From positions 50,262 through 114,261 of the forward strand of contig JBAZOP010000002.1 in assembly GCA_041648665.1 (NCBI GenBank): a stretch of 64,000 bases of DNA, read 5' to 3'. Position 1 is the stretch's first letter. Each line of letters opens with the position of its first letter. Both the position numbers and the translations under genes were made by a program. Below, piece after piece: positions 7,399 to 58,319 of this stretch. Below the pieces are notes generated by a model. It made no database searches. It was not told the origin of the DNA and saw only the letters and a program-made list of their open reading frames with translations. Source of the DNA: a bacterium. Its GTDB lineage: Bacteria > UBA10199 > 2-02-FULL-44-16 > JAAZCA01.

Positions 7399-8478
7399 TC
7401 ACCCAGGAGTATAACCGCCGCTGGCGCGTTTGTCAACAGGTAAAACGCCTGGTTCCAGCGCACACGTGTGCGCCCCCTCCCCAGCGGGCCCCCACCCCAC
7501 GTCCAGCGGCTCCGCAGGTGGCCGGTACTCGCCCGCGTCCCGCCCGGCCGCGCGCCCCCGCTTAGCCCCCCCGGGGCCCGGGGCCAGGAACAGCCGCCAG
7601 AACCCCCCCACGAGGGCCTCGATGCTGGGCGCCGGGGCCAGCCGGCCCTGCGTGGTGGCCGCCACCGCCTCCCACCGCCCCACCGCGGCCCCCACCGTCC
7701 GCGCCACCAGCGCCTCCCCGTGCGCCCCCACCAGCGCCGCCACGCGCGCCCGGGTCCGGGGTGCCCACGCCGGCTCCGCCGCCACAGCGGGGCCGTAGCG
7801 GGCCTCCAGCGCAGCCACGTACACCGCCCGGATCCGATCCACCGCCCCCGGATCCCCCTCCCCTCCCTCGCTGCTGCCTTCTTCGATCTCCGTTTCGAGA
7901 TCGATCGCGCGCGCTACGCGCGGGGGGGGGATCTGTTCCTGTTCCTGTTCCTGTTCCTGTTCCTGGATCGGGGATGGCGTCCCGATGCCATCCGGTATGC
8001 CATCCGGTATGCCATCGAGAAGGCATCGCGCATGGCATCCGGAAGGCATCCGGAACGCCTTCCTGAAGGCTTTCAGGAAGGCAGGGGAGAGCCCCTCGCA
8101 CAAGGCTTCCAACAGGTGGAAAAAACTGCCCTTTAGCGGGCTACTGGGCAGCTCATCGAACGCCCGCGCCCACGATTTCAGCGCGTTCAGACTATTGGGC
8201 GTGTTGTACCGCAGGAAGTGCGGCAGCAGCACGACCTGGGCGTGCTCGTCGTACAGGGCGAACCCCTGCGCTTCGGCCTCCCGGAACGCGGCGATGTAGC
8301 GATCGAAGGGCCAGCGCTTCTCCGCCGCCAGCGCCTCCAGGCTGGCCTTGTACAGGCCGAACGGCGACGAGAGCGGCGTGGTTAGCAGGTGCAGGAAGAC
8401 CAGCTGGCAATCATCCGAGGCAAAGGGGAACTTGTCGTCGTTCCAGAGCAGGCAGTGCACCGTGCGGTACCGGCTCAT
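7399..8478 (-). CDS. putative replication initiation / replisome-organiser-like protein with internal repeat linker
   Basis: The N-terminal domain HCLLWNDDKFPFASDDCQLVFLHLL resembles phage replication-organiser N-domains. A DGIPDGIPDGIG and EQEQEQEQEQ linker follows. The C-terminal tail is translated across the promoter and palindrome, so the true 3' end is uncertain. Start at MSRYRTV overlaps the RHH stop as ATGA. Confidence 0.4.
   Translation of the reverse strand: MSRYRTVHCLLWNDDKFPFASDDCQLVFLHLLTTPLSSPFGLYKASLEALAAEKRWPFDRYIAAFREAEAQGFALYDEHAQVVLLPHFLRYNTPNSLNALKSWARAFDELPSSPLKGSFFHLLEALCEGLSPAFLKAFRKAFRMPSGCHARCLLDGIPDGIPDGIGTPSPIQEQEQEQEQEQIPPPRVARAIDLETEIEEGSSEGGEGDPGAVDRIRAVYVAALEARYGPAVAAEPAWAPRTRARVAALVGAHGEALVARTVGAAVGRWEAVAATTQGRLAPAPSIEALVGGFWRLFLAPGPGGAKRGRAAGRDAGEYRPPAEPLDVGWGPAGEGAHTCALEPGVLPVDKRASGGYTPG
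7403..7440 (-). promoter_or_regulatory. promoter, TTGACA, 17 nt, TATACT (conserved motif family)
   Basis: CTGTTGACAAACGCGCCAGCGGCGGTTATACTCC on the minus strand. The palindrome GCGCACACGTGTGCGC lies about 15 nt upstream of the -35 box. Confidence 0.5.
7933..7962. repeat. (CTGTTC)x5 hexanucleotide tandem repeat (encodes EQEQEQEQEQ on the minus strand)
   Basis: Read directly from the sequence. Lies inside the putative replication gene. Confidence 0.8.
7985..8017. repeat. 12-nt tandem repeat ATGCCATCCGGT, about 2.7 copies (encodes DGIPDGIPDGI)
   Basis: Read directly from the sequence, adjacent to the hexamer repeat. Confidence 0.75.
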
Positions 8479-8687
8479 GCTCCACCCCCCGGCGTGCACA
8501 CGTGTTCGCTCGGTTGCCCGGGATCCAGGTCCCGCAGGGTGCCCGCCTGCGCCTCGCGCTCGAACGCCTCATTGACCAGGGCCGACATCAGGTCCTGCAT
8601 GTTGACGCCGCGCACGGCGGCGAGCAGCTTCAGGCGCATCCGGGCTTCCGCGCCCAGGTGCACCGCCTTCCGATCATCGCTCGGCAT
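8475..8687 (-). CDS. ribbon-helix-helix (Arc/CopG-like) DNA-binding protein
   Basis: MPSDDRKAVHLGAEARMRLKLLAAVRGVNMQDLMSALVNEAFERE shows a beta-strand followed by two helices. SD GGAGGG sits 6 nt upstream. It is the first gene of the RHH-replication operon and diverges from the IS. Confidence 0.55.
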   Translation of the reverse strand: MPSDDRKAVHLGAEARMRLKLLAAVRGVNMQDLMSALVNEAFEREAQAGTLRDLDPGQPSEHVCTPGGGA

Positions 8688-8884
8688 TCTGTCCCTCCGG
8701 ATTGTGGAGGCAGACGGTACCATACCCAGATCACGGCAGGCAAGTACTTTCCGTGGGAAAGTGACGCGGCCTACTCTTCCTGCTCGCTGTTGTGGGATCG
8801 GTTGCCGGACATCAATGCCTCCGCGAGGGGACCGTCGTCTTTAGGCGACGGGAGAATCGCGGCCCCTCTCCGCTTGCTTTTCTG

Positions 8885-10115
8885 TTGACTTTCATCTGTT
8901 CATATGGGACTCTTGCATTGTGAGACGGACAATCATCATCGCGCTTGAGCCAGCCAACGAGCAGCTTGCTGCACTCACGGAGACCTGCGACCTGTTCACC
9001 GAGGTCTTCAACGCCGTCTGCACAGGCGGGTGGCAACACGCCGAAAAGAACGGGGTCCGCCTCCACCACGCCTTCTACCGGCCCCTCAAGGCCCAGCACC
9101 CGACCCTCGTGAGCGACCTGCATGTCCAGGCCCGCGTCAAAGCTACGGAGGCTATCCGAAGCGCGTTGGCCCTCAAACGCAAAGGCAAGAAAGTCTCCTG
9201 CCCGCACTCCACCTCTTGCCCCCCGCGCTACAACCTGCACACCTTCAAGATCGACTGGGCTTCCCGCACCGTGCGCCTGTCCACTACGGCGGGGCGCCAG
9301 ACCATCCGGTTCGCCGTCCCCGTTCACGCGGAGCGGTACGCCGAGCATCCAGTGGACACTGCCGATCTCGTCTGCTGCGAAGGTCGTTGGGCCATGCACG
9401 TCTCCGTCACCGTGCCTGCGCCCGCCGTCGATCCCGTCAATGACGTGGTGGGCGTGGACCTCGGGCTGGCCCAGCCAGCCGTCACGTCCAACAACCAGTT
9501 CCTGGGCAAAAAGGCATGGCGCTCTATCGAGAACCGGCTCTTCAAGCTGAAGCGCAGGCTGCAAGAACGAGGAACCAAGAGCGCCAAGCGCCATCTCAAA
9601 AAGATCCACAAGTCGCAAGCCAGGTTCCGCAGAGATTGCGACCACGTGCTCTCCAAGAAAGTTGTCCAGGCTTGCCCCGCTGGCGGCACGATCGTCTTGG
9701 AAAACCTGACCGACATCCGCAAGCGGGCACGGGCCAAGAGCAACACCGAAGCCAAGCGCCGCCTTCACGGGTGGTCCTTCGCGCAGATCAAGATCTTCAT
9801 CGCGTACAAAGCCGAGGAACGGGGTTGTACGGTGGCCGGGGTCGATCCCCGGCATACCTCGCAACGATGCTCTCGCTGTGGACACACGGCGAAGAACAAC
9901 CGCCGCTCCCGCGCCGTGTTCAAGTGTCGGAAGTGTGGATTTTCCCTCCACGCCGACTTGAACGCAGCTCGCAACATCGCGGCCAAGTACCAGACCCACG
10001 TCGGCATGCCCGATATGGGTGGGCACCCTGTCAACGTGCCTATCGCGGGAGTGGGTGAACTCGTTCATTCAGCTACCTGCAAGCCGCCCGCTTTAGCTGG
10101 CGGTCGTTGACGTAG
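8885..10115 (+). mobile_element. IS200/IS605-family TnpB-only insertion (IS1341-like); ends not defined
   Basis: Carries the intact TnpB gene, has lower GC than its flanks, and the CTGTTGAC promoter-like motif sits at its 5' side. Its 3' end overlaps the convergent gene 10073..10810. Confidence 0.5.
8920..10110 (+). CDS. tnpB: TnpB (OrfB) RuvC-like RNA-guided endonuclease, IS200/IS605 family
   Basis: RuvC-I VVGVDLGL, RuvC-II TIVLENLTD, zinc finger CSRCGH...CRKCG, RuvC-III HADLNAARNIA. All catalytic D/E/D residues are present. Confidence 0.8.
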   Translation: MRRTIIIALEPANEQLAALTETCDLFTEVFNAVCTGGWQHAEKNGVRLHHAFYRPLKAQHPTLVSDLHVQARVKATEAIRSALALKRKGKKVSCPHSTSCPPRYNLHTFKIDWASRTVRLSTTAGRQTIRFAVPVHAERYAEHPVDTADLVCCEGRWAMHVSVTVPAPAVDPVNDVVGVDLGLAQPAVTSNNQFLGKKAWRSIENRLFKLKRRLQERGTKSAKRHLKKIHKSQARFRRDCDHVLSKKVVQACPAGGTIVLENLTDIRKRARAKSNTEAKRRLHGWSFAQIKIFIAYKAEERGCTVAGVDPRHTSQRCSRCGHTAKNNRRSRAVFKCRKCGFSLHADLNAARNIAAKYQTHVGMPDMGGHPVNVPIAGVGELVHSATCKPPALAGGR

Positions 10116-10859: not shown

Positions 10860-10896
10860 TTCAATTATAACCAGTCGGTATGCGTTTGTCAACATA
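10860..10896 (-). promoter_or_regulatory. consensus sigma70 promoter, TTGACA, 17 nt, TATAAT (conserved motif family)
   Basis: ATGTTGACAAACGCATACCGACTGGTTATAATTGA on the minus strand. Confidence 0.6.
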
Positions 10897-12594
10897 TTAG
10901 GATCGCGTCGTGACGCGCAGAATTTCACCGCTGCGGAGGCCGACCACGGTGTCCCCGGCCGCGACCAGCCGCAACCCGGCGACCGCGGGATCGGCAATGC
11001 GACGGCCGACCTGCGCCCCGCGCTCGGGGAAGAGGGACAGCTCGCCGCCCTCGTCGATCAGGGCCACCACGCCCCGGGCAAGTCGGGCGACGTTCAGCGC
11101 GCCATGACCCACGTTACGATCGGCCCAGCGCAGCTGGGCGCCCGCACTGCCCACCGCGTACACGTAGCGGTCGACGCTGCCCCCGCGCTCGGCCAGGACC
11201 AGCAGGGCGCGCCCCCCGGCCCAGGCGTCCACCACGCGGGCGCCGTCCAGATCCGCCAGCCGCACCTGGTCGCTGCGGCCCGGGGCCGGGAACACGTTCG
11301 CGTACCACGCGCCCAGCACGCTCTGGAGGGCCACGCCGGGGTACAGCTGCGTCGCCAGGGGCGCCACGTTGGCCACCACGCGCGGGGCGGCAACGAGCTG
11401 CCCCCCCAGGCGCGCCAGCTGCACCTCGACCACGTGCTCGCCATCGTGGGCGTACAGGCGACCCTCGGCGGTGGTCAGCGCCGCAGCCTGCACGACGAGG
11501 GGCACCTCCGCCCCGCCATCCAGGGCGCGCATCCGGAGGCGCTGGCGGTCGATCCAGGCGTAGAGCGGCGTGCCGTCGGGGGCCCATGCCAGGGATCCCG
11601 CGCCATCCACGGGGACCTGCCGAGGAGGCCGGGTGCCGTCCCATAGCGTCACCGCGCACCCCGCTGGTCCCCGGACCAAAGCTGCCTCCGCGCCGCCGGG
11701 GATCGCCACGTACTCCAGCACATCCCCATCCACGACATGGAGCACGCGCAGGTCCACGTGCCCGGCGCTCGAAGCAGGCCGCAGCCCACGCATGGGCGCG
11801 CTGGCTTGGGCGCTGGCGGGCGGGGGATCGCGGCGGCCGGCCTCGAACACAGCGCGGTACCAGTCGCGATAGGCGCTCGGGATCACGTCTAGGGGCGGCA
11901 CCAGCGGGGGCACCGACACGGCGGCGTTGAACACCGAGAGGTTGGCGCGCATGCGATCGGGCAGACCACGCACCGTGGGGTGGCGCCCCTTGTAGGGGTG
12001 GATGCCAACGAACAGCTGGAAGGTCACGATGCCCCAGGAAAACCAGTCGGATCCTGTGGTCCAGCAGCCCTGGGCGTGCCAATCCCGCACGCTCTCCATC
12101 AGGGCGGTGGCCGGGAAGCGAGGCGTCTGGTAGGAGTCCACATCGATGAAGCACACCTCCTCGAAGGTGGCGGTGGCCAGGAAGTTCATCTCGTTGGCGT
12201 CCACCACCAGCACGCGGGCGGCGTGCACTGCCTCCATGCTGGCGCGCATGCGCTGCACGAGGCGCAGCACCGTGGAGCCATCCAGGCCGTGCCGCGCCTG
12301 GAATGCCCGGGTGAAGAGCTGGCAGAGCGGGAAGGCATCCGGAACACGGCGCATGCTGTAGCCGACCGGGCGCCCCCGGCCGTCCAGCAGCACGCGCTGC
12401 GGCCGGATCACGCTGTCGTCAGCGATCGCGCTCAACTCGTCGATCTTAGCCTCGGGGACCATGCGCTCGGGCTTCAGGTAGACCTTGAACGCCTCGTCCC
12501 CGTGAGCGTAGACCTGCCCCTCGCCGCCCGCGCCCAGGAAGTTGGCCTGGGTCAGCACGACCTCGCCGCCCCCCCGCATTCGGTACTTCGTCAT
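10897..12594 (-). CDS. Ser/Thr protein kinase-like protein with C-terminal repeat/beta-rich domain
   Basis: Gly-loop LGAGGEGQVY, AFKVY lysine, a D-x4-N catalytic loop (VVDANEMN), DVD in the DFG position, and DWFSWGIVTFQLFVGIHPY as the subdomain IX equivalent. Last gene of the vWA-PP2C-kinase triad. Confidence 0.6.
   Translation of the reverse strand: MTKYRMRGGGEVVLTQANFLGAGGEGQVYAHGDEAFKVYLKPERMVPEAKIDELSAIADDSVIRPQRVLLDGRGRPVGYSMRRVPDAFPLCQLFTRAFQARHGLDGSTVLRLVQRMRASMEAVHAARVLVVDANEMNFLATATFEEVCFIDVDSYQTPRFPATALMESVRDWHAQGCWTTGSDWFSWGIVTFQLFVGIHPYKGRHPTVRGLPDRMRANLSVFNAAVSVPPLVPPLDVIPSAYRDWYRAVFEAGRRDPPPASAQASAPMRGLRPASSAGHVDLRVLHVVDGDVLEYVAIPGGAEAALVRGPAGCAVTLWDGTRPPRQVPVDGAGSLAWAPDGTPLYAWIDRQRLRMRALDGGAEVPLVVQAAALTTAEGRLYAHDGEHVVEVQLARLGGQLVAAPRVVANVAPLATQLYPGVALQSVLGAWYANVFPAPGRSDQVRLADLDGARVVDAWAGGRALLVLAERGGSVDRYVYAVGSAGAQLRWADRNVGHGALNVARLARGVVALIDEGGELSLFPERGAQVGRRIADPAVAGLRLVAAGDTVVGLRSGEILRVTTRS
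10903..10925 (-). terminator. possible hairpin terminator (CGCGTC-AC-GACGCG inverted repeat) after the kinase gene
   Basis: The inverted repeat sits immediately 3' of the kinase stop. No strong U-tract. Confidence 0.25.
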
Positions 12595-13403
12595 GCGCTG
12601 CCCTCCGCGCGCTCCAGGACCACCGCGCCCATGCTGAGGTCGTCATCGTGGCGCCATCCCCGCTGAGCGGCCTTCCGCAGGAACGCCTGGAGGCGCCGCT
12701 GCACAAACACGCCCTGGAGCCCCTTGAACGCCATCAACTCGCCCACGATCACCTCAGAGGGGATGGGCTGGTGGTCCGCATCCAGGAAGGAGCGCACACC
12801 ATCGCTGAACACAGCCACGACGGCGGCGTCCTCGATGGTCCGCTGGAAGGGCTGCACGCCCCGGCATCGCAGCTCCTCGCCATCCGGGCCACGCGCCACC
12901 CACTCCTCACGCTGCAGCACGGCCGCCATGCGCTGGTCGTCCACGAGGTAGTTGGCGTAGCGAGGGTATCCGTCGGGAGCCTCAACTTCCCAGATCCGCA
13001 GGGCGCCCCCCGGGTCCCGGGCGGCGATCACGCCGTCCCCGGTGCACGAGACGAAGGCCGAGGATCTTTGGCCCAGGGCGAAGACCAACGTGGCGTCCAT
13101 CGCCAATGGGTCCAGATTCCAGCACGTTTTCTGGAACAGACGGCGCCGGAGGTCGATCACCTCCATGGCGCCCCAACACCACCACGCGGGATCTGCCATG
13201 GAAGAAATGCGGCCTATTCCAACCTCGCAGCTCAGGGTGAGCAGCCGCGCGCCAACGTCCGTGTCGGGGCTGCCCGAGCAGCCGTCCGAGACGATGGCGT
13301 AGGGGCGGCCCTCTTGCGTCCGTCCGCACCGGGCGTAGTCCTGGCAGACCCGGTGGGCCGCCCCGATGACGTAGGCGCTGTCCGCGTTCGCCCGCATCTC
13401 CAT
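12591..13403 (-). CDS. PP2C-family Ser/Thr protein phosphatase
   Basis: Start MEMRANAD overlaps the vWA stop as TGATG. SDGCSG and SDGVRSF motifs, and a C-terminal DDLSMGAVVL typical of PPM phosphatases. The upstream track extension is GC-rich low-complexity sequence. Confidence 0.65.
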   Translation of the reverse strand: MEMRANADSAYVIGAAHRVCQDYARCGRTQEGRPYAIVSDGCSGSPDTDVGARLLTLSCEVGIGRISSMADPAWWCWGAMEVIDLRRRLFQKTCWNLDPLAMDATLVFALGQRSSAFVSCTGDGVIAARDPGGALRIWEVEAPDGYPRYANYLVDDQRMAAVLQREEWVARGPDGEELRCRGVQPFQRTIEDAAVVAVFSDGVRSFLDADHQPIPSEVIVGELMAFKGLQGVFVQRRLQAFLRKAAQRGWRHDDDLSMGAVVLERAEGSA

Positions 13404-14155
13404 CAGAGGCTGAAGGACATCGGCTGCGAGGGGCCGCCGGTTCCGAGCGCCTGGGACTGGGCGCTGATGCTCTTGCTCACGAAGGCCGCCAACTTGGCCA
13501 GCGTCCGCGCGCTCGCGTCCTTGGTCTCGACGTACTGTCCGATCCCAGCCTCCTGCTGGAAGGCGACCAGGGCGCCGCTCACCTGCGGGTCGTTGCCCAC
13601 CCCGACGCCCACCAGGATGGACACCTGGCTCTCCAGCGCCTCGGACTGGATGGCGCGCTCCAGCTGCGCCCGCACCTGCCCCGGGCCCCCCGCGGAGGCG
13701 TTGTCGCAGCCGTCGGAGATGATCACGGCCACCCCGTTCACGGCGTAGTCGCTGCCGACCAGGGTACGCGCGTAGTCGGCCTGCGCGTGCACGGCGTGCT
13801 CCGCCGCGTCGAACAGCGCCGTCATGCCGCCGCACGACAGGCAGCCGCGGTAGTCGTCGAGGTTGCAGTTGGCGAGCAGCTTGAAGCCGTGCACCTCCCG
13901 CATGTGGTCGTTGAAGGTGATCATCCGCAGCATCAGGTTGTCGGCCCGGGGAGACAGCTTGCAGGCGTTGACCACCTCGCGGATGGCCTGCTCCATATCC
14001 GCAGCGTAGGGCCCCACGGACCCGCTCACGTCCACGGCCAGCGTGACCAGGGTGTACTCGGCCGCCCCCAGGGCGTCCAGGCGCGTGGCGCTGTACCCGA
14101 ACGCGGTGGTCGGGAGCGCGCGCTCCTCCATGGACAGGTCGTTGATCTTCGGCAT
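13403..14155 (-). CDS. von Willebrand factor A (vWA, TerY-like) domain protein
   Basis: MIDAS motif LAVDVSGSVG. SD GAGGGAA. Start at MPKINDL (M137 of the track ORF). Confidence 0.65.
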   Translation of the reverse strand: MPKINDLSMEERALPTTAFGYSATRLDALGAAEYTLVTLAVDVSGSVGPYAADMEQAIREVVNACKLSPRADNLMLRMITFNDHMREVHGFKLLANCNLDDYRGCLSCGGMTALFDAAEHAVHAQADYARTLVGSDYAVNGVAVIISDGCDNASAGGPGQVRAQLERAIQSEALESQVSILVGVGVGNDPQVSGALVAFQQEAGIGQYVETKDASARTLAKLAAFVSKSISAQSQALGTGGPSQPMSFSL

Positions 14156-14187
14156 CGGTTCCCTCGCCTTCCTGCTAGCGCACCGCG

Positions 14188-14991
14188 CTAGCGCAGCACG
14201 TCCACCGTGGTCGACGTCTGCATCCCCTTCGCCGTCATTTCGGCGACGAAGTCCTCTTGGAGCTTCTCGAACCCGGGCACCGGGCTGAGAGCGTCGGTGA
14301 GCAGCACGAACTTCTGGACGTAGTCCGCGCTGCTGAACCCGGCCGCCACGTCCCGGATCGTGTTGGCGACGCAGTGGCTGCCCGCCTCGCCCGCGATCAG
14401 GATCAGGTCCGCCTCCTCCAGCGCCTGGATGAGGCGCAGGTTGATCTGGGTCGACGGATCTGCCGGGTCCGGCACCTCGGCCTTCACCCCGGAGTAGTGC
14501 TCCGTGAACAGGTTGCTGCCCTTGCTCACGAAGTCGATCACGCCCGGGCCCGCGGCCGCCCAAGCGTTGAGCGCCTCCAGCACGGCCGGCACCAGGGTGG
14601 CGCCCGGGCTACCGATCAGGCAGTGCGGGGGCCAGATGCACAGCGGGTACCGGTGTCCGGCCTCCAGCGCGCGCACGTAGTCGAGCATGCGGCGCGTGAG
14701 GCTGGGGATGCACGGCGTCCAGGCGCCGCTCTCCACGTCCTGTGGCGTGATGATCGTGAACGGCGTCGGCGGCTGGCCGTCGGGCCCGCGCCACATGGCC
14801 GGGTGCGCCACGTCCAGCAGGTGATGCTGGTCGAGCGTCGCGTGGATGTCGTGCAGCCGCGCCCCCAACCGCTGGACCATGGCGGCCACGCGCTGCATGT
14901 CCTCCGCGGCGCCAGGCACGAACAGCGCCCCAGTAGGGTCGCAGAAGTCGTGCTGCGCGTCGATCAGGAACAGGTCCACCTTCTTCGTCAT
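14188..14991 (-). CDS. pncA: nicotinamidase PncA (isochorismatase/cysteine-hydrolase family)
   Basis: DLFLIDAQHDFCDP matches the isochorismatase N-motif. DIHATLDQHH are metal-binding His. IWPPHCLIGSPGA matches the PncA signature WPPHCV. Catalytic Cys in GEAGSHCVANT. Confidence 0.7.
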   Translation of the reverse strand: MTKKVDLFLIDAQHDFCDPTGALFVPGAAEDMQRVAAMVQRLGARLHDIHATLDQHHLLDVAHPAMWRGPDGQPPTPFTIITPQDVESGAWTPCIPSLTRRMLDYVRALEAGHRYPLCIWPPHCLIGSPGATLVPAVLEALNAWAAAGPGVIDFVSKGSNLFTEHYSGVKAEVPDPADPSTQINLRLIQALEEADLILIAGEAGSHCVANTIRDVAAGFSSADYVQKFVLLTDALSPVPGFEKLQEDFVAEMTAKGMQTSTTVDVLR

Positions 14992-15003
14992 CGGATCCTC
15001 CTC

Positions 15004-15753: not shown

Positions 15754-15755
15754 CG

Positions 15756-16928: not shown

Positions 16929-16957
16929 TCCCGTTCGTTCATGCCTCTACGCCTGAT

Positions 16958-18807: not shown

Positions 18808-18843
18808 GGATAGCTTAACCCGTTGTTATGCGTTTGTCAACAG
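18808..18843 (-). promoter_or_regulatory. promoter, TTGACA, 17 nt, TAAGCT (conserved motif family)
   Basis: CTGTTGACAAACGCATAACAACGGGTTAAGCTATCC on the minus strand. Confidence 0.5.
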
Positions 18844-18876
18844 AGAAAAAAGAAAAAAGCGCACACGTGTTCGCGC
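18844..18876 (-). terminator. intrinsic terminator: palindrome GCGCGAACACGTGTGCGC followed by a U-tract (TTTTTTCTTTTTT)
   Basis: On the minus strand the 18-bp palindrome is immediately followed by a 13-nt T-rich run and then the next promoter. Confidence 0.5.
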
Positions 18877-18881
18877 GCGGA

Positions 18882-19190
18882 TCAGGCGAACTTCTTGGCC
18901 ACGGCCTCGGCCATGCGGTTGACCTCGTCGGCGTACTTGCGGAGGGCGGGCACGAGGATGCTGTTGAACAGGTCCGGGGCCGCGCGGGTGGGCAAGCCAA
19001 TGCGCGAGTAGCCGTCCAGCTTCCGCTTTGCATTCGCGAACGCCGGCTGCAGGATCCGCTCCGCCTTGCTCTCCAGGGTATCGTACAGCTGCTTCGGATG
19101 CTCGATCATGCGACGCGCCTCGTCCTGCGGGTCCGGCGCATCCGGATCGACGGACGTCGCTTCCATCAACTGCTCGATCAGATGTCGCAT
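18882..19190 (-). CDS. MRHLIEQL-family small protein (paralogue 1)
   Basis: N-terminus MRHLIEQLMEA is shared with four other proteins in this window. Confidence 0.5.
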   Translation of the reverse strand: MRHLIEQLMEATSVDPDAPDPQDEARRMIEHPKQLYDTLESKAERILQPAFANAKRKLDGYSRIGLPTRAAPDLFNSILVPALRKYADEVNRMAEAVAKKFA

Positions 19191-19911: not shown

Positions 19912-19947
19912 ACCCACATTATCATATGGGTTTGCGTTTGTCAACCA
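19912..19947 (-). promoter_or_regulatory. promoter, TTGACA, 17 nt, TAATGT (conserved motif family)
   Basis: GGTTGACAAACGCAAACCCATATGATAATGTGGG on the minus strand. Confidence 0.5.
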
Positions 19948-21220: not shown

Positions 21221-21257
21221 GTCCGATCTCGCCTCCGTGCTGGCGAACACGTGTTCG

Positions 21258-21746
21258 CTACGCCCTCACCTCGCCCGCGATATCCTTCAGCTCGCCCGCC
21301 GCCTGCTCCAGGTCCCGCGCGAACGACGCTGCCATGTCCCGCGTGAACCGCGATCTGCCCACGTTGTCGGCGTAGGCCCGCGCCTTCTCGATGGCCCGCT
21401 CCAGCGTGGCCCGGATGCCCGCCGCCGTGATCGCCTCGTCCAGTCCCTCGGCCGCCAGCCGCCCCCGCACCGGGGGCGTGATGTCCACCACGGCCAGCTC
21501 GGTGTCGAAGATGGCCTTGGCCAGCCGGTCCAGGGCGTCCAGGGCGACCCGGAGCGCCCGCTTCACCTGCGGGCTGGCGGAGGCCACCTCCTCCTCCGGC
21601 TCCCCCTTGGCGATGGCCCGCATGGCCAGATCCCCCGCGAAGTTGCGCACCCGGCTCCCGAAGTCGTACACCTGCGCCTTGCGCACGTCGCGCGGGCCCA
21701 GCCGCTTGAATGCCGCCTCTTCCAACTGGCGTAGCAGTGATCGCAT
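21258..21746 (-). CDS. MRHLIEQL-family protein (paralogue 3; MRSLLRQLEEA)
   Basis: Internal ATG. Shares the family N-terminus. Confidence 0.45.
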   Translation of the reverse strand: MRSLLRQLEEAAFKRLGPRDVRKAQVYDFGSRVRNFAGDLAMRAIAKGEPEEEVASASPQVKRALRVALDALDRLAKAIFDTELAVVDITPPVRGRLAAEGLDEAITAAGIRATLERAIEKARAYADNVGRSRFTRDMAASFARDLEQAAGELKDIAGEVRA

Positions 21747-29539: not shown

Positions 29540-29773
29540 GGGCCTGCTCCTCGTCCACGCGCGCGCGCAGCAGCTTCAGGGCCGCCCCCAGGGCCTCCGG
29601 CGGCGCCACCCCCAGGTCACGCGCCAGCGCCAGCACGGCGTCCCAGGCGTCCCGGGGGAACAGGACCATGACCAGGCCATCGTCTTGCGCCGGATCTGAT
29701 GTGCGGGCCGCCCGGCCTGATCCCAGCGAACACGTGTGCGCTTTCCCGTGGACGATCTGTGCGCGCATCGCCA

Positions 29774-35656: not shown

Positions 35657-35689
35657 TAGTCACCTCACACAGCGAACACGTGTTCGCTG

Positions 35690-44411: not shown

Positions 44412-44477
44412 CTTCCTACCCTATCACGCCAGCGCGCGAAAGGCACGCTGCTGGACCAGCGAACACGTGTGCGCCGA

Positions 44478-50500: not shown

Positions 50501-51530
50501 ACAGCATGGCCTGCTGCTGCGCACCACCCGTGCCGAAGCGATCGAACACCCCCTGGAGCAACTGCGTGCCCTTCACCGCGTCGCGCGACCCCACCTCGAT
50601 GATGTTCACCGCCTCGTCCATCCCCACGCCCAGCTTGGTCATCCATTGGAACAGCGGAGAGTCATCAAGGGACCCGATGCCGTACTTCATCGCCCGCTCA
50701 ATCGCAACCGCCTGATCCGCGAACATCTGGGCCGTCTGCTGGCCCAACTGGACCGCCTCCTCCTCGCTGCTGCCCATGGACCGGAACGCGCCCGAGAGGC
50801 GCACGGTGGACTCGGTGAGCGCCATCATCTCGTCGCCGCTACGCCGCATCTCCGGGGGCACCTTCTCGAACGTCTTGGCCAGGCCCTCCAGGTTGCCCTT
50901 GAGCTTCTTGAGCGGTTCCACGCCCACGCCCGCCTTGCGTCCCAAGTCGGTCAAGCGATTGATGTACTTGACCTCGTCCGCCGCGCTGGCCTGCCACCAC
51001 GCCCCCAGGCCGCCCATGGCGTCGGTCAGCTGGTCCATCTCGATCCCGGTCGTCTCCGTGATCTTCACCCAGTCCTTGGCCGAGTACCCCAGCGCGTCCA
51101 GCGCCTCCTTGGCAGGCCCCGTCGCCTGGTTCATCCCCTTGAACACCTTCGCCACCGTCTCCGCGCCGACGTTCAGCGAGATCGCCATCGACGAGATCTG
51201 GCCCGTCATCCGCCGGGCTTCCTTGCCCGTCAGGTTCAGGGATGCCACAAACGGCTTGGCCGCCTTGGCGTTGGCCACGGCCATCGCCTCCAGGCTGTTG
51301 GTCAGGTTGCCCGTGTCGCCCGTCAGGGAGCGCACATCCGACGCGATGGAGGCGATGTTGAACTGCTTGATGCTCTCGAAGAACCCCGGGACGTCCGACT
51401 TCTTGGCGATCTTGGACTGGGTCTCCATCGTGTCGTTGAGCTTGTCCATGCTGGACTGCGCCGACGACATGGCGGCCTTCATCCCCACGTCCCGCGCCCC
51501 CATGCCCCATGAGATGCCCAGCAGGTTCAC
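47568..51530 (-). CDS. tail tape-measure protein (1320 aa)
   Basis: Very long helical, Ala/Gly/Lys-rich ORF directly downstream of the chaperone frameshift pair. GTG start with SD GGTAGGAGG. Confidence 0.8.
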   Translation of the reverse strand: MNLLGISWGMGARDVGMKAAMSSAQSSMDKLNDTMETQSKIAKKSDVPGFFESIKQFNIASIASDVRSLTGDTGNLTNSLEAMAVANAKAAKPFVASLNLTGKEARRMTGQISSMAISLNVGAETVAKVFKGMNQATGPAKEALDALGYSAKDWVKITETTGIEMDQLTDAMGGLGAWWQASAADEVKYINRLTDLGRKAGVGVEPLKKLKGNLEGLAKTFEKVPPEMRRSGDEMMALTESTVRLSGAFRSMGSSEEEAVQLGQQTAQMFADQAVAIERAMKYGIGSLDDSPLFQWMTKLGVGMDEAVNIIEVGSRDAVKGTQLLQGVFDRFGTGGAQQQAMLSELSGALGEAANGLGYLAQRGDSGAKALERVSKITSDGKFSLKDYANQAFSTGRTLQESMDLMKSSFETKFRAIARKDVVRFVGDMGRAYNEVAAQTKQLASDETWGPLIKRLSAANQLGFRGLIMDLEGSNKEMAKFSAIVELAGSALGSVATSAGPVMSLFGQLSILTGPGGLLTRGLGGFIGKLGLIGLVIGGVVVGIKMLSKRGMDLGKVFSKALDWVGGLAGKIRDFLAKIDWAQVGKSIGSFVWNALTFIPKAIWGWITGKEAEGELGKAGTKFIENLGGAIWEAAKGLGKMLWGLGKEVVDSVSEWWDSWTWEDVKDSFSGMGDSIKGWWDGLQKDPEFSEFKLNVKEGLQDAGWAIEDWWYNFKNNFDDGMEHAVKKSKSLVKDINLEGAGEDAGSSLVSGIANGIRASTAVSQQIALQSVEYRKAALNELATFDSAELDTSWATTTAKWIGRARDSIMTAGEGAIRIAGVSTVGLTQTIAGMFGSGMDQASQEGDVSISRYFSNMLESMRNYIHGFALKVQKFIQEVSVGLQDIVLQLAYPEYAEKKGKELEAKLASERAKDMQDRLAQVKEGFEKHKKNWTAMVEGQGVAATGALEAFGIGTGADIAGEKKGKKQVEREQKWMAGWQAQADKLSVAAHQEAEAKKALSGLQGKDITTPEGLSALTQAETEAAKASAVLKGVQAQITKSAGAAGIKDDALTVGVKKAMDLIIRQEEVRAEAKIQMEEAQQRLTNVESQAQLAAQAAAQKVSEAFGQAAVGAMNAGAEVSLGFAGGMTEQPSIDAMVKGADIAAQTVADRLTSHSPILDGPLANVGAGGPADPAFNAGMALMESFASGITTSVDLVTQAVNDTLDASVYATFDAYKAKMEELARKKSLLADVANMMMRDFGGSLQSTVTVEGKTEDVKAQMRAMLNIPGMAGVTMAIINESAKQRAILDKIRANTETIAKSDLITRGKVGSGGEVVLGG

Positions 51531-51563
51531 CGATGCCTCCTACCAGCGAACACGTGTGCGCTC

Positions 51564-52609
51564 CTACCTTCGCCTGCGCGCATGCCGCCGCGCGGATGCC
51601 GCCTGCTGCTCCGCCTGGGAGCGCCGCGACTCTTCGAGGCGCCCCTTCTGCTCCACGAACCGCTTGCGGCGGCTGTATGGCATGCCCATGATGCTGTCGT
51701 AGGTGCCACCTTGCAGCTCCATGAGGAAGAACACCTCGCTCTCCTGCGCCGCTAGGGCGCCGAGGGGAAGAAAAAACTGGGCTGCCCCAGGTTCAAGTCG
51801 TCCCGCCACTCATGCTGACACGACGGACACGCAAAGTCTACTACCGTGTCCACGTGGCCTTCGTACTGCTCGAAGAGGGCCCGGATCTCGTTGCGGTCCC
51901 GCGTGGGGAGCCCCTTCAGGCACGCCATGGCCTCCTTGTGCTTCCGATCGCGCTCGACGGGCACGCCGTCGATGGCCTCCACGCGCGTCAGCAGCCCCAG
52001 CGTCAGCGTGTCCTCCTTGCGCTTGCCCTTCGCGCTCAGCCACTCCTCGTCCGCCGCGGTCATGACGTGCCAGCGCACCACGCGCCCGGAGGACAGCGTG
52101 TGCTCCCACACCCGCTGCGTCCGATCCTGCATCGGCCGGATCTCGACCTGCGCGAGGTCCAGCGTGTAGCGCACCTCGTCGCGGCATTCCGGGCTGGGGC
52201 ACTGCACCTTGACCTCGTACTGGTCGCCCAGTGACACGCGCCGGATGGCCAGGAGGGCCACCATGCGATCGCTGGCCGTCAGCGCCGCCACCGCTGCGTT
52301 GAGCGCCGCCCGATCATCGATGTTGCCAAGCCGGTGCGTGCAGTTCAGGATGATCTGGTTGAGCCGCTGAAGCACCGGGCCCTTCGCCGTCAGCAGGTCC
52401 TCCTCGTACCCCGTCATCTCGCCCACCACCAGCTCGCTGTGCACGCTCCCCTCCCGGTCCAGGTAGCCGCACGGCAGCTCCACCGTCAGCACGGTGGGGC
52501 GGATATCGGACCGATCCCAGTCCTGCTGCACCGCTGCCAGCTTCTCCTTGGTCGGCACGATCGGCGCCTCCGGCGCCCCCTGCTCGCCCTTCTGATCCTG
52601 ATCCGTCAT
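51564..52609 (-). CDS. tail assembly chaperone frameshift fusion product (GT-like, via -1 PRF)
   Basis: A -1 slip at T_TTT_TTC joins the 285-aa frame to FFLPLGALAAQESEVFF...RRHARRRR*, which ends 34 nt before the TMP start. Confidence 0.45.
51752..52609 (-). CDS. tail assembly chaperone (G-like, 285 aa, with CxxC...CxxC zinc ribbon)
   Basis: Ends ...QPSFFFPSAP* at the slippery site. Overlaps the -1 frame ORF 51564..51809. Confidence 0.5.
   Translation of the reverse strand: MTDQDQKGEQGAPEAPIVPTKEKLAAVQQDWDRSDIRPTVLTVELPCGYLDREGSVHSELVVGEMTGYEEDLLTAKGPVLQRLNQIILNCTHRLGNIDDRAALNAAVAALTASDRMVALLAIRRVSLGDQYEVKVQCPSPECRDEVRYTLDLAQVEIRPMQDRTQRVWEHTLSSGRVVRWHVMTAADEEWLSAKGKRKEDTLTLGLLTRVEAIDGVPVERDRKHKEAMACLKGLPTRDRNEIRALFEQYEGHVDTVVDFACPSCQHEWRDDLNLGQPSFFFPSAP
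51770..51776 (-). promoter_or_regulatory. -1 programmed ribosomal frameshift slippery heptamer T_TTT_TTC
   Basis: Minus strand CCC AGT TTT TTC TTC. The zero frame stops 8 codons later and the -1 frame continues for 70 codons. Confidence 0.55.
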
Positions 52610-52803
52610 TGCTCTTGCACCTTTCTATGTGCCCGCTGCGCATCCAGCGACAGCAGCTCTGCTTCGGCGCGGCGCTCCTGCCGCACCCAGCCGACGATCA
52701 ACTCGCGCACCACGTCCGAGAGCGACCGCCCCAGGCGATCCGCGCGATCCCGGAACTCCACCAGCACGTCCTCTTGGATTTCCATATTGAGCCTCGACAT
52801 GCT
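52606..52803 (-). CDS. ribbon-helix-helix (CopG/Arc-like) protein heading the tail operon
   Basis: MSRLNMEIQEDVLVEFRDRADRLGRSLSDVVRELIVGWV. SD GGAGGTAGC. ATGA overlap with the chaperone gene. Confidence 0.55.
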   Translation of the reverse strand, partial: SMSRLNMEIQEDVLVEFRDRADRLGRSLSDVVRELIVGWVRQERRAEAELLSLDAQRAHRKVQEQ

Positions 52804-52814
52804 ACCTCCTGCGC

Positions 52815-52848
52815 ACAGTCTACGCATGATCTGCGCACGCGGTCAACC
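52815..52848 (-). promoter_or_regulatory. promoter, TTGACC, 18 nt, TAGACT, with flanking TGCGCA...TGTGCGCA inverted repeat (possible RHH operator)
   Basis: GGTTGACCGCGTGCGCAGATCATGCGTAGACTGTGCGCAGGAGG on the minus strand. Confidence 0.4.
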
Positions 52849-52876
52849 ATCCGGCCCCAAAAAAGTGCAGGCATAG

Positions 52877-52906
52877 GGTTGACAAACGCAATGGAGGCAT
52901 TATTAT
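52877..52906 (+). promoter_or_regulatory. plus-strand promoter, TTGACA, 16 nt, TATTAT (conserved motif family, only plus-oriented copy)
   Basis: GGTTGACAAACGCAATGGAGGCATTATTATAG. Diverges from the RHH/tail promoter. Confidence 0.5.
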
Positions 52907-52954
52907 AGTCCCAAGATGCCGGGCGCTAAGCCCAGGCCAACCGAGGAGGATCCA

Positions 52955-53092
52955 ATGAAGATCGAACGCATCCGACGCCGGGTCATGCAGATCACCTACG
53001 ACGGCCGCTCCCCGGAGATGGAGGCCCGGGCCAGCGCGCTCGCGCTCGCGCTGGGCGCGCGCGGCTACACCGTGACGCTGGTGAAAGCGTAG
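52955..53092 (+). CDS. small protein (45 aa)
   Basis: Hand-translated MKIERIRRRVMQITYDGRSPEMEARASALALALGARGYTVTLVKA with SD GAGGAGG. Below the ORF-track size cutoff. Confidence 0.4.
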   Translation: MKIERIRRRVMQITYDGRSPEMEARASALALALGARGYTVTLVKA

Positions 53093-53169
53093 GGAACTGG
53101 ACGCGCACACGTGTGCGCATGATCGTGCCCACAACGGTGCCACGCACCGTTCAACCAGGAGGAGAAGCC

Positions 53170-53958
53170 ATGAACGAGACCGAGACCCCCAAGACGATCG
53201 ACGGGCTGATCGTGGAGCTGCAGGAGGCCGAGGAGCGCCGCGACGACGCCCTGGCCGACTACGGCCGCGTGCTCCAGGAGAAGCTGGCGCTGGAGGCGAC
53301 CTGCGAGACCCTGCAGGTGCTCGTGGCCTCCGCCGAGGGGGCCGCCACGGGGTACAAGGCCGCGGTCGCCGACCTCGCGGCCCGGCTCCAGCTGGCCGAG
53401 GCCGAGCGCGACGCGCGCGCCCTGGACGAGGAGTGGCGGGCCAAGCGCATCGAGATCCAGAAGCTCCGCGACAAGTGCGAGCAGATGCGCAAGAACCTGA
53501 TCGCCGTGGACGCCCGGGCGGACGAGCGGTACGAGGCGCGCGTCGTCGAGATCTGCGCCGAGCGCGACCGGGCCATCGCCGCCGCCCAGGCCGACGCAGC
53601 TGCCCAGATCGCCACCGCGGAGGCCGGCGTCGCGGAGCGCATCGCCACGATCCGGGCCGAGGCCGCCCAGACCATCACCGAGCGCTGCGCCCAGTCCGAT
53701 GCCGCCGCGCGGCTGGCCACGGTCGCGCACGGGGAGGCCGACGCCCGGGCCGCCGCCGCCACGCAGCGGGCCGAGATCGCGGAGCGCAACCTGGCCATGG
53801 TCCGCCAGGCCAACGTCCACCGGGTCGATGCCCTTCGGGACGCGGTGGCCCTGACGTTCGCCTGGGAGCGGCGCGACACGCGAAAGGTCAAGTCGGCGGA
53901 CGACCTGATGCAGCAGCTCCAGAAGACGCTGTACCAGGCGATCGCCGTGGCGCGGTAG
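53170..53958 (+). CDS. coiled-coil protein (263 aa)
   Basis: Start MNETETPK with SD AGGAGGAG. The palindrome GCGCACACGTGTGCGC lies about 50 nt upstream. Ala/Glu/Arg-rich heptad-like sequence. Confidence 0.5.
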   Translation: MNETETPKTIDGLIVELQEAEERRDDALADYGRVLQEKLALEATCETLQVLVASAEGAATGYKAAVADLAARLQLAEAERDARALDEEWRAKRIEIQKLRDKCEQMRKNLIAVDARADERYEARVVEICAERDRAIAAAQADAAAQIATAEAGVAERIATIRAEAAQTITERCAQSDAAARLATVAHGEADARAAAATQRAEIAERNLAMVRQANVHRVDALRDAVALTFAWERRDTRKVKSADDLMQQLQKTLYQAIAVAR

Positions 53959-54029
53959 GTGCGGAGGATCCCCCCTCCCCCTGGGCAGAACCTGCGAGGT
54001 CCGGCATGGCCGGGCGAAGGAGAAGAAAG

Positions 54030-54251
54030 ATGGACCGCAGCGACTTGGGAACCGACACGACCCTGGTGATCAACCTCGACGCCGAGATCTGGGCGGCCTG
54101 CCCCGACGAGCCCCTCAGCGCGGCCCCCCCGCTGCGCCTGGCGCCCGACCTGCGCTGGCGCGACCTCTACGACGAGGACGAGCCGGGATGCCTGTTCGAC
54201 CGCTACCCGCGCACCGGCCGGGCCCGCAGCCGCCGGCGGCACGCCGCGTAA
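54030..54251 (+). CDS. hypothetical small protein (73 aa)
   Basis: Strong SD GGCGAAGGAGAAGAAAG before ATG (MDRSDLG). Confidence 0.45.
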   Translation: MDRSDLGTDTTLVINLDAEIWAACPDEPLSAAPPLRLAPDLRWRDLYDEDEPGCLFDRYPRTGRARSRRRHAA

Positions 54252-54254: not shown

Positions 54255-54659
54255 CTACTGCGCAGGAGACAGCACGGGATCGGCGGCTGGATCGACGGTG
54301 GGATCGGGGGCGGGCCCGGGCGCCTCCTCGGCCTGGGCCATGCCCCGCAGGGCGGTCCGCACGGACGCGGCGCTGGCGCCGCTCACCTTGCCGCCCACCC
54401 GCTGGAGGCAGTTCACGATCACGGGGTAGAGCGCCTGCCGCAGCTCCGCCAGGACGGCCCCCGCGTCCCCCTCCTTGCCCACCACGGCCTGGAGGCGGGG
54501 CTTGACCTGGCTCCCTCCCAGCAGCGCCTCCAGGAGGCGCTCCACCTCCGCCTGGCTGGTGCGGAACGCGGGCGCGCCCTCCTCCAAGGACTCCTGGCGG
54601 GGCTCCCGAGTGGACTCCCGCATGAGCTGCCGCAACTGCCGTGCCTTCTCCGTCAACAT
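54255..54659 (-). CDS. hypothetical protein
   Basis: 134-aa ORF. Confidence 0.4.
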   Translation of the reverse strand: MLTEKARQLRQLMRESTREPRQESLEEGAPAFRTSQAEVERLLEALLGGSQVKPRLQAVVGKEGDAGAVLAELRQALYPVIVNCLQRVGGKVSGASAASVRTALRGMAQAEEAPGPAPDPTVDPAADPVLSPAQ

Positions 54660-57359: not shown

Positions 57360-57363
57360 GGCA

Positions 57364-58278
57364 TCACCCTGCTTTCCAGGAGGCGAAGAGCTTCTGGGCC
57401 TGCTTCAGCATGGCCTCCAGCGCGTCCACCTCCTCGTCGTGCTGCTTGTTCAGCTCCTCGCGCTCGCGCTTGTCCTTGGCATCCATCGGCGTCCCAGCCC
57501 CGTAGATGCGCGCCCGCAGATGCTGGATCTCCTGCCAGTGCCGCTGCAGCTCGGACAGCGCAAGCGAGAACCGCGCCCCCTCCCGGCTCTCCTCCATCAG
57601 CGCCCGCTTGGGATCGGCCGCCGCCGCCTCTGGGATCGTCACGCGCACGGTCTTCCCCGCGCTGTGCTTCACCGGGTAGGTCGGCACCCGGCCCGAGTTG
57701 CTGAACCACGCCCGCACGCCGTCCAGCAACGCCTGGGCCTTGTCCTCCAGCGCGTGCATGGCAGCCTCGTGCTGCTTCCAGTTCTTTTTGGCCTCCTGCA
57801 GCGCGACCTCCTTCCACGCATCGCCCAACCCATTCACGATGCTAGCCAGTGCGGCCTGGGACCCGTGCGACGCTTCTGGCGCTGGCACGCCAGCCAGCGA
57901 TGCCAGATCCTTGGCGATCCACTTGCCGTCCCGCGCGCTGTCAAGCACCCTTCGAACAGCCCGGTCGATCTTGAACTTGTCGATGGGCTTGTCAGACGGA
58001 AGCTCGTCGATCACGGCATCCGCGAAGTGGCGGCCGCCCTTCCCATCCAGGAACTCCCGGATGGCCTTGGATGGGATGCCCTGATACTTCTGCACGAACA
58101 CCCGGAACGCTCCGTTCCACGCCTCATCCGGAGGTACAGATCCAGACGGAGCGTCTGATAGTCTGCTCGACATTGTCCCGAAGAACCCCCACGACGTGTT
58201 CTCCGTGGGCAACACCTGCCCCTGCCGCTTCCCTACCGCTTCGCAGATCTGCTGCCCCAGCTGCCGCAACGTTCCCAT
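57364..58278 (-). CDS. hypothetical protein
   Basis: Start taken at MGTLRQLGQQ with SD AAAAAGGAGAAG. The track start is a GTG inside the palindrome. Confidence 0.45.
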   Translation of the reverse strand: MGTLRQLGQQICEAVGKRQGQVLPTENTSWGFFGTMSSRLSDAPSGSVPPDEAWNGAFRVFVQKYQGIPSKAIREFLDGKGGRHFADAVIDELPSDKPIDKFKIDRAVRRVLDSARDGKWIAKDLASLAGVPAPEASHGSQAALASIVNGLGDAWKEVALQEAKKNWKQHEAAMHALEDKAQALLDGVRAWFSNSGRVPTYPVKHSAGKTVRVTIPEAAAADPKRALMEESREGARFSLALSELQRHWQEIQHLRARIYGAGTPMDAKDKREREELNKQHDEEVDALEAMLKQAQKLFASWKAG

Positions 58279-58319
58279 CAGCTTCTCCTTTTTCTCAGCG
58301 AACACGTGTTCGCCATCTA

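Follow-up and report, generated by a model that had tools for sequence, protein, structure and literature searches.

The window analysed here, a stretch of 64,000 nucleotides to which all plain coordinates refer, is part of a 161-kb (161,166-bp) contig of an uncultivated high-GC myovirus and carries at its gene junctions ten copies of a 16-bp dyad, GCG(A/C)ACACGTGT(T/G)CGC, which is the subject of this text. Genes were called with a self-trained codon model that was concordant with the public gene calls for the contig; they lie almost all on the minus strand and leave 7.3% of the window non-coding. Early-type genes are found in the left third (NAPRTase, NAD synthase, PP2C, a Dam-like methylase, a metallophosphatase, an L7/L12-domain protein, and tRNA-Pro), and the genes of a contractile tail and a T4-like baseplate, identified with Pfam and PHROGs, occupy the right two-thirds. 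Domain scans with both databases covered essentially all window proteins, 10 kb past the left end, and 150 proteins of relatives. In the Pfam scans, no integrase, repressor, ParB, partition, LexA/S24, or Cro/CI-type domain was seen in the approximately 74 kb of the contig or in the 150 relative proteins. Relatives encode RF-1, an RNA ligase, RtcB, MT-A70, and a Tad2-like protein, and the group also carries tRNA and NAD salvage genes. The presence of tRNA, RF-1, RNA ligase, RtcB, and NAD salvage functions and the absence of an integrase from the scanned proteins suggest a virulent lifestyle for the group. Among GenBank phages, megablast with 7 kb of the window gave no match and tblastn with the sheath protein a best hit of 33% identity over 42% of the protein, and the phage thus appears to have no isolate relative there.

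A search with the pattern GCGMACACGTGTKCGC, in which up to two mismatches were allowed and dinucleotide-preserving shuffles (n = 100) served as null, returned exactly the ten places listed in a preliminary description of this DNA, with exact positions that differ from the earlier ones by 0-8 nt (Table 1). The shuffles held 0.35 ± 0.66 copies, and none of the 100 reached ten. The copies had been taken for perfect palindromes, with one mismatch at 8494; five are perfect (7458, 21243, 35672, 53103, and 58298). In four others (18859, 29726, 44459, and 51546) position 4 is not complementary to position 13, and the copy at 8494 shows two asymmetries and one mismatch to the pattern. The core ACACGTGT occurs ten times in the window, always within these copies (0.73 expected), and arm-matching sites with a different centre were not seen there. 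Isolated half-sites stay at chance level in the window (9 seen, 9.9 expected), so that only full dyads are enriched. The half-sites read CGAAC in 11 and CGCAC in 9 of 20 cases, and the two half-sites of a copy assort independently (5 of 10 mixed). Eight copies fall into the non-coding DNA (binomial P = 3.3e-8); the remaining two lie in terminal codons, i.e. in the last ~25 codons of open reading frame (ORF) 7399-8478 (copy 7458) and the last ~8 codons of ORF 8475-8687 (copy 8494), which bears out the junction and ORF-tail placement described before.

Along the direction of transcription, a typical junction consists of the stop codon, 0-10 nt, the palindrome, 1-8 nt, the Shine-Dalgarno sequence, and the start codon. 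In typical window junctions the start codon lies 15-22 nt past the palindrome (11-22 nt when relatives are included), with the ribosome-binding site in between. As had been observed for 21243, 35672, 51546, and 58298, these copies precede the next start codon at this distance without a T tract; the same holds for 8494. Copy 53103, as described, precedes a plus-strand gene. In the annotation of these phage genomes, the motif marks cistron boundaries reliably.

The same phage has a set of sigma-70-type promoters that come close to the consensus and share an extended -35 element (TTGACAAACGC; in general form TTGACAAAC(G/C)(C/G/T)), a spacing of 17 nt, and a TATAAT-like hexamer. Seven members lie in the window, mostly in the early-gene third, and four just outside; those at 18830 and at L043 13154 (same contig, beyond the window) are almost identical over 37 nt (TTGACAAACGCATAACAACGGGTTAAGCTATCCTCAC). 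Copies 7458 and 18859 lie upstream of a -35 box, at 21 and 18 nt from TTGACA, respectively, and not at the 15 nt or so first given; the T tract and subsequent promoter reported on the minus strand after copy 18859 were found again. None of the ten window copies extends into a -35 or -10 element. Two copies of the wider palindrome family abut a -10: at L043 12387 in the same phage and at L022 617 in an 89.8-kb relative, a promoter of the TTGACAAAC type has the palindrome right past its -10 hexamer, at about -6 to +10. At this second site (L022 617-700), a TTGACAAACG promoter with a palindrome variant at its start site stands directly before a tRNA-like sequence (GGGACGTGGCTCAGTCTGGTAGAGCAC), so that a tRNA gene may be under such control. 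A palindrome is found near only 3 of the 11 sigma-70-type promoters of this phage, and to call it a master operator that defines transcription units was an overstatement. A role as late promoter was rejected, because a conserved AT-rich element is absent and the interval between palindrome and ribosome-binding site is too short for a -10 element plus a start site. A resemblance to sigma-54 promoters, judged by eye, was likewise discarded; the GG-N10-GC spacing is absent.

The exact 16-mer was found in 41 IMG/VR stretches, mostly from a few high-GC contigs with several copies each, parts of which are 73-84% identical to the window; tblastx synteny mapping was too noisy at this GC content for quantitative use. 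Variation among 58 non-redundant copies from the window and its closest relatives, aligned by local gene direction, is essentially limited to position 4 (A 46, C 12), position 13 (T 44, G 14), and a T10A change that recurs; the flanks add a weak A...T extension. The relatives' copies are mostly intergenic or placed in ORF tails. At orthologous junctions the palindrome forms an island of identity within diverged intergenic DNA, e.g. copy 58298, which is kept in relative L028 though the neighbouring intergenic bases differ. Intragenic copies always occur in the frame encoding Arg-Thr-Arg-Val-Arg and use ACA, CGT, and GTT, rare codons at this GC content. One of them, in a 290-residue head gene located between portal and scaffold, persists in five relatives even where protein identity falls to 61%; a second is part of a gene just outside the window.

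The comparison was extended to 27 loci around sheath homologues (43-71% identity, 34-68% GC) and 19 loci around baseplate-protein homologues. Nearly every clade in this range of 34-68% GC holds several copies with the arms CGAAC-N4-GTTCG, each clade with its own centre: TCGA in a clade of 34-35% GC; TCAA, TTGA, TTAA, TTGT, and AATA in clades of 43-58% GC; TCCA in a clade of about 51-54% GC; and CCGG, CCAG, and CTGG in one of about 60-64% GC. The centres ACGT and ACGA are also found among the arm-sharing sites. Judged from the shared arms, the 16-mer is the local form of a far older element. The order of parts at a junction (stop codon, palindrome, Shine-Dalgarno sequence, start codon) does not differ between clades, and the start codon follows the palindrome by 11-20 nt. 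Two junctions can be traced from clade to clade, one ~2.5 kb upstream of the sheath gene and the other between a ~56-residue gene and the tape-measure-like gene (window copy 51546). The junction orthologous to the latter bears CGAAC-N4-GTTCG in every related clade examined in which the neighbouring baseplate protein is at least 49% identical. The asymmetric centres TCAA and TTGA swap at the same orthologous junctions, which means that the element is not oriented with respect to transcription. Relatives differ from each other by gains and losses of sites. Two further clades place unrelated palindromes, TGCGCAYGCGCRTGCGCA and TTGCAATCATGATTGCAA, at the same junctions of stop codon and ribosome-binding site; TTGCAATCATGATTGCAA is a perfect 18-mer with four copies in 8.8 kb. 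Examples of genomes with the respective types are IMGVR_UViG_3300029258_002326, 3300028840_003497, and 3300037067_016086 for CGAAC-N4-GTTCG, 3300037042_006682 for a TGCGCA-type palindrome, and 3300005099_000039 for TTGCAATCATGATTGCAA. Such an exchange of palindromes between clades at fixed junctions is expected for a regulator and site that co-evolve. The series amounts to a natural experiment in which the junctions stay the same, the arms are kept at widely differing GC contents, the centre drifts, and entire clades have switched to another palindrome; the binder could be sought through a small ORF that changes together with the palindrome type.

Table 1. Palindrome copies, promoters, and associated genes. 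Positions are those of the window unless an L number (locus handle) precedes them.
Feature	Sequence or product	Position	Strand	Context
Palindrome	GCGCACACGTGTGCGC	7458..7473		perfect; 3' tail of ORF 7399-8478; upstream of minus-strand promoter -35
Palindrome	GTGCACACGTGTTCGC	8494..8509		1 mismatch; last codons of small ORF 8475-8687 resembling a ribbon-helix-helix (RHH) protein; 15 nt before ATG of 7399-8478
Palindrome	GCGCACACGTGTTCGC	18859..18874		4/13 not complementary; starts 7 nt past stop of 18882-19190; on minus strand followed by TTTTTTCTTTTTTCTCTG, then promoter; sole copy with T tract
Palindrome	GCGAACACGTGTTCGC	21243..21258		perfect; 1-nt overlap with TAG stop of 21258-21746; ends 22 nt before ATG of 20579-21220
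Palindrome	GCGAACACGTGTGCGC	29726..29741		mixed half-sites; in 104-nt gap after tube-like gene 29774-30607
Palindrome	GCGAACACGTGTTCGC	35672..35687		perfect, 20 bp with flanks; starts 2 nt past stop of 35690-36217; ends 15 nt before start of 33209-35656
Palindrome	GCGAACACGTGTGCGC	44459..44474		mixed; starts 3 nt past stop of 44478-44819; upstream of gp25-like gene
Palindrome	GCGAACACGTGTGCGC	51546..51561		mixed; between 56-residue gene 51564-51734 and tape-measure-like gene
Palindrome	GCGCACACGTGTGCGC	53103..53118		perfect; in plus-strand three-gene cassette; starts 10 nt past stop of 52955-53092, ends 51 nt before ATG of 53170-53958
Palindrome	GCGAACACGTGTTCGC	58298..58313		perfect; starts 6 nt past double stop of 58320-59156; ends 19 nt before ATG of 57364-58278
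Promoter		907-934	-	
Promoter		3804-3814	-	
Promoter	TTGACA-17-TATACT, extended -35 TTGACAAACGC	7408-7436	-	immediately downstream of copy 7458
Promoter		10864-10892	-	
Promoter	TTGACAAACGC..TAAGCT	18812-18840	-	18 nt downstream of copy 18859
Promoter		19934-19944	-	
Promoter		52879-52889	+	
Promoters		L043 12357, 13154, 14480, 19948		same contig, outside window
Intragenic palindrome	R-T-R-V-R	L008 2800; L023 438; L034 11823; L007 1311; L032 3832		290-residue head gene of relatives
Intragenic palindrome	R-T-R-V-R	L043 17744		inside gene just beyond window
Other multi-copy palindromes	TGCGCAYGCGCRTGCGCA, TTGCAATCATGATTGCAA	L186 7567, 13704, 20400; L187 7636, 14603; L205 2594, 3802, 4991, 8120		sister clades
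Gene	sheath	61820 to beyond 64000		right part of window
Genes	two gp19-like tube proteins	one at 29774-30607		tail module
Genes	gp5-like spike; gp6-like and gp9/10-like proteins; amidase			tail/baseplate module
Gene	gp25-like baseplate protein	43983-44411		
Gene	1320-residue tape-measure-like protein	47568-51530		

It is proposed, with a probability of roughly 0.5, that the copies are two-fold-symmetric DNA operators for a dimeric sequence-specific binder, which is probably phage-encoded and co-evolves with its sites. An operator for a dimeric regulator was among the options named in the preliminary description, and it is favoured by the missing covariation at positions 4 and 13, the weak and heterogeneous hairpins, the conserved arms around variable and flipping centres, the abutment to -10 hexamers, and the rare-codon intragenic copies. 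In the 58 aligned copies, the pair 4:13 is A-T in 38, C-G in 6, and non-complementary in 14 (24%), and its covariation does not exceed that of shuffles (69 of 500 reach the score). All other stem positions are invariant or nearly so. Invariant stems with variable loops are the opposite of what selection for structure alone should leave and fit a dimer that reads two arms. The recognised unit in the wider group would be the arm pair CGAAC-N4-GTTCG, which in this lineage would have grown to the full 16-mer. At sites directly past a stop codon and before the next ribosome-binding site or sigma-70-type promoter, the bound protein would block RNA polymerase just uncoupled at the stop codon from the ribosome behind it, and this roadblock would insulate the adjoining gene blocks from read-through. 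Where a site abuts a -10 hexamer, the protein would also occlude the transcription start, and its removal or titration would open the downstream structural genes. The roadblock would be a palindromic counterpart of the stoperators of mycobacteriophages. The binding, the identity of the protein, and its effect on transcription are what we infer from the observations given above.

Several points weigh against operators of this kind. In long gaps (29726, 44459, 53103, 18859, and many of the relatives' sites), the palindrome hugs the upstream stop codon at 0-14 nt and not the downstream start, a position just as natural for a 3'-end or terminator element in RNA. The three palindrome types have their position and their capacity to form a hairpin in common, and this would fit a structural role in RNA as well. 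No binder was recognised with Pfam among the scanned proteins (window, 10 kb beyond, 150 relative proteins), and the conserved protein RHH-2 fails to change along with the type of palindrome. The apparent virulence of the group makes a stoperator function in lysogeny unlikely, and what a roadblock would serve for during lytic growth is a matter of conjecture. A site at the start point could equally let the promoter's own transcripts escape a hairpin that halts transcripts arriving from upstream.

The three RHH proteins of the phage, suggested earlier as possible binders, do not fit this part well. RHH-1 and RHH-2 give sub-threshold RHH matches in Pfam and RHH-3 none, and RHH-1 and RHH-3 were not seen in the fetched relatives. 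RHH-2 (52606-52800) has a weak ParG-like match (E = 0.003 in Pfam, 0.019 in a PDB sequence search); it was rejected because its orthologue keeps the N-terminal strand nearly unchanged (RLNVE/RLNVQ) in a clade with the wholly different TTGCAATCA palindrome. A sigma-like protein of 243 residues in relatives (L008 13215-13946, identical in L006) combines an XRE-type helix-turn-helix (HTH_31) with two subsequent Sigma70_r4 stretches, and a palindrome starts 5 nt past its stop. This candidate was also set aside; no homologue was found in the window or the sheath loci.

Readings at the RNA level, doubtful but of some weight when taken together, divide according to whether the hairpin acts alone or is read by a protein. 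Acting alone, an RNA (or transient DNA) hairpin could serve after stop codons as a U-tract-less or partial terminator, an attenuator, or a 3'-end stabiliser that sets the relative expression of neighbouring cistrons. This is judged unlikely, and the lone U-tract-less terminator of the preliminary description is disfavoured with it, keeping some plausibility because the element adjoins the upstream stop codon, within 0-14 nt even in long gaps. Further, promoters, where present, come after the palindrome; the stem and T tract of copy 18859 score as terminator-like; canonical terminators show no excess elsewhere; and three unrelated palindromes share hairpin potential at the same junctions. Predicted RNA hairpins reach -9.6 to -13.9 kcal/mol in perfect copies, within a window range of -5.4 to -13.9 kcal/mol, whereas two of the ten window hairpins fold no better than shuffles and those of relatives yield -4.4 to -9.2 kcal/mol, in low-GC relatives only -4.4 to -6. 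A T tract directly follows the hairpin in one copy of ten and is missing in nine, an A.G or C.U mismatch disrupts the middle of the 6-bp stem in 24% of the copies without covariation, and the combination of invariant stems and variable loops runs counter to this explanation. Copies are moreover kept inside genes, an essential head gene among them, where termination or cleavage would do harm, and others sit well within the baseplate and tail operons. A phage protein that binds the hairpin, whether as an endoribonuclease for the cleavage of polycistronic late transcripts or as a translational repressor at the ribosome-binding site masked by it, is distinctly improbable. Sequence-specific conservation paired with hairpin potential, clade-specific sequences as for a co-evolving protein, and, in the majority of copies, a distance of 1-8 nt from hairpin to Shine-Dalgarno sequence would agree with it. 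However, the same mismatched stems, unconserved loops, and flips of orientation are hard to reconcile with such a protein, intragenic copies would be cut or blocked, and a site in a long gap stands well away from the ribosome-binding site. At L043 12387 and L022 617 the palindrome covers the start sites, so that transcripts from these two promoters would lack the 5' arm. In an Rfam scan of the window only tRNA-Pro reached the gathering score, and the palindrome matched no family. The anti-terminator or processing site mentioned earlier found no specific support.

Among the readings at the DNA level, it is quite unlikely that the sites are SOS boxes of the LexA repressor of a putative Gram-positive-type host (Bacillota, Actinomycetota, or Chloroflexota), which would hold phage genes back until RecA-stimulated cleavage of LexA and thereby tie structural genes to DNA damage in the host. 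The family consensus CGAAC-N4-GTTCG equals the Gram-positive LexA box, as in the umuC box of S. aureus, CGAACACGTGTTCT (PMC11442139), and its constancy across phages of 34-68% GC is that of a factor with host-conserved specificity. The closest cellular homologues of the phage NadE stem from Bacillota, Armatimonadota, and Dehalococcoidia, a weak hint at Bacillota or Chloroflexota with which the strong use of Shine-Dalgarno sequences also agrees. There are precedents: LexA represses the late promoter of phage GIL01, where a phage LexA-domain homologue acts too (PMC6182141), and boxes of a host regulator, CtrA, occur in lytic phages of alphaproteobacteria (PMC9437464). On the other hand, 9 of the 20 window half-sites read CGCAC and not CGAAC, and the whole 16-mer, down to its centre and its outer G/C, is fixed within a lineage, which is far more information than LexA boxes contain. 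Most clades have T after CGAAC, where all S. aureus boxes quoted in one study have A or G (PMC11442139). The copies are mostly not at promoters, and two sister clades bear palindromes at the same junctions that do not resemble LexA boxes as these are generally known. Among 185,579 species genomes, the exact 16-mer occurs at 120 loci at least; the matches listed are all single copies from many phyla and form no prophage-like clusters. At 45 genome loci of Actinomycetota, Bacillota, and Chloroflexota, the neighbourhood showed no SOS enrichment (one RuvB and one AlkB-like protein among 29 neighbours; recA and lexA not adjacent). These counter-points favour a phage-encoded, co-evolving regulator over host LexA. 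Least probable of all are DNA sites without a transcriptional role, such as parS-like sites at which ParB/KorB clamps load, recombination hot spots that shuffle modules, or cleavage or nicking sites. The parS site is likewise a 16-bp palindrome with a CACGTG core. The copies also bracket gene blocks, turnover between relatives and tolerated intragenic copies suit sites of this kind, and the stem-loop with early promoter at 7458, 18859, and L043 12387 resembles cassettes of T4-type phages. Yet the Pfam scans linked no ParB, nuclease, or recombinase to the sites, the CACGTG core is confined to this lineage while relatives keep the arms alone, and the strict placement after stop codons would go unexplained.

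If the preferred operator reading holds beyond this phage, large virulent-looking uncultivated myoviruses of 34-68% GC might partition their co-directional gene arrays by clade-specific palindromic stop sites read by a dedicated, co-evolving phage regulator, with an SOS-box sequence in most clades; this wider picture is tentative. Should the binder be LexA or a LexA-derived phage protein, the timing of lytic structural genes by host DNA damage would be a new logic, comparable to lytic deferment based on CtrA. It raises the question whether lytic phages of Gram-positive-type hosts exploit LexA boxes.

Other features of the contig and its relatives deserve mention. Two genes for IS605-family TnpB, an RNA-guided nuclease, lie at 8920-10110 (+) and 42761-43957 (+), opposite to the strand of the phage genes. 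The second is located between the gp6-like and gp25-like baseplate genes, and its protein is 100% identical to MFA4971274.1. An identical TnpB assigns the window to the 161,166-bp contig (ENA ERZ27247363, k141_1852669); relatives of ~70% identity are common in metagenomes, and no host taxonomy was obtained from TnpB relatives. An auxiliary metabolic block (12591-17503) encodes a PP2C phosphatase, a vWA-like and an isochorismatase-like protein, the NAD salvage enzymes NAD synthase and NAPRTase, and a 181-residue protein with a ribosomal L7/L12 C-terminal domain. Across 36000-40000, the GC content drops to 53-58% (~67% elsewhere); this region spans a tail-fibre-like gene of 1041 codons (36562-39687) and suggests a recently acquired host-recognition module. 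The tail module also holds a collagen-like GPTGPT repeat protein (28946-29539) and a 113-residue protein of proline-rich LPGLP repeats (44478-44819). Within this minus-strand module lies a plus-strand cassette of three genes (52786-54251; 45 residues, a coiled-coil protein of 262, and 73 residues), the promoter of which stands back-to-back with that of RHH-2. Only 3 nt separate the cassette from the end of the convergent gene 54255-54659, and no terminator-like element was seen in between. In a relative, the portal gene (L008 2-2467) has an apparent HNH/intein-like insert (VVTPDHQF... HHIDDRKRNN...), recognised by eye from the translation.

Several known systems resemble the element in part. 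Promoter-early stem-loop cassettes of T4-type phages, said to have been described by Arbiol et al. in 2010 and reportedly proposed to shuffle gene modules, share with the sites at 7458, 18859, and L043 12387 the intergenic combination of a short stem-loop with a sigma-70-type early promoter in a large myovirus with T4-like baseplate; in contrast, the majority of the copies here belong to the late structural region, stand without a promoter, and show one fixed sequence. The start-associated sequences (SAS/ESAS) of Cluster K mycobacteriophages are reportedly repeats, including imperfect 17-bp inverted repeats, just upstream of many ribosome-binding sites, and their function has reportedly been left open. 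They are said to be asymmetric and to contain the Shine-Dalgarno sequence, whereas the present element is tied to the upstream stop and excludes the ribosome-binding site. Systems of the parS/ParB type differ in that the core is lineage-limited here, no ParB domain was found in the scanned proteins, and RHH-2 offers only its weak ParG-like match. The stoperators of Cluster A mycobacteriophages and their repressor co-evolve between lineages. These stoperators (L5 gp71 type) are near-identical intergenic sites that, together with an operator at the early promoter, were proposed to stop elongating RNA polymerase (PMC9283540). Many near-identical sites in short gaps and a site at an early promoter are found here as well, but stoperators are asymmetric, 13-14 bp long, bound by a monomer, and oriented with transcription, and the present sites are symmetric and free of orientation; Cluster A phages are also temperate and maintain lysogeny, unlike the phage studied, which yielded no repressor or integrase in the scanned proteins. 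The likeness is proposed as a functional analogy and not as membership. The LexA box of Gram-positive bacteria has identical arms and spacing, as in one natural box of S. aureus (PMC11442139), and early and late promoters of GIL01 are controlled by LexA together with a phage LexA-domain homologue (PMC4551915; PMC6182141). What sets the present sites apart is their far greater uniformity, the CGCAC variant, the placement between cistrons, sister palindromes unlike LexA boxes, and the lack of a LexA-like gene among the scanned proteins.

The closest described case is that of the Cluster O mycobacteriophages with more than 30 copies of 17-bp palindromic repeats, TGTTCGG-N3-CCGAACA, for which a dimeric DNA-binding protein was predicted and the function left open (Cresawn et al., 2015; PMC4351075). 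In both cases, many near-identical dyads are spread across the phage genome, many intergenic and some intragenic, beside separate, strongly predicted sigma-70/SigA-type promoters in phages that are not obviously temperate, and the arms contain the hexamer CGAACA/TGTTCG. The arm order differs (TGTTCG..CGAACA with a 3-nt spacer in Cluster O, CGAACA..TGTTCG here), and Cluster O comprises siphoviruses of Mycobacterium with ~70-kb genomes, in which about a third of the copies lie in genes and tight placement at stop codons is absent. The two share no protein or DNA homology; the resemblance is one of kind only. Dispersed identical palindromes in phages have been reported before, yet unexplained; here such an element can be traced through a deep group of uncultivated phages.

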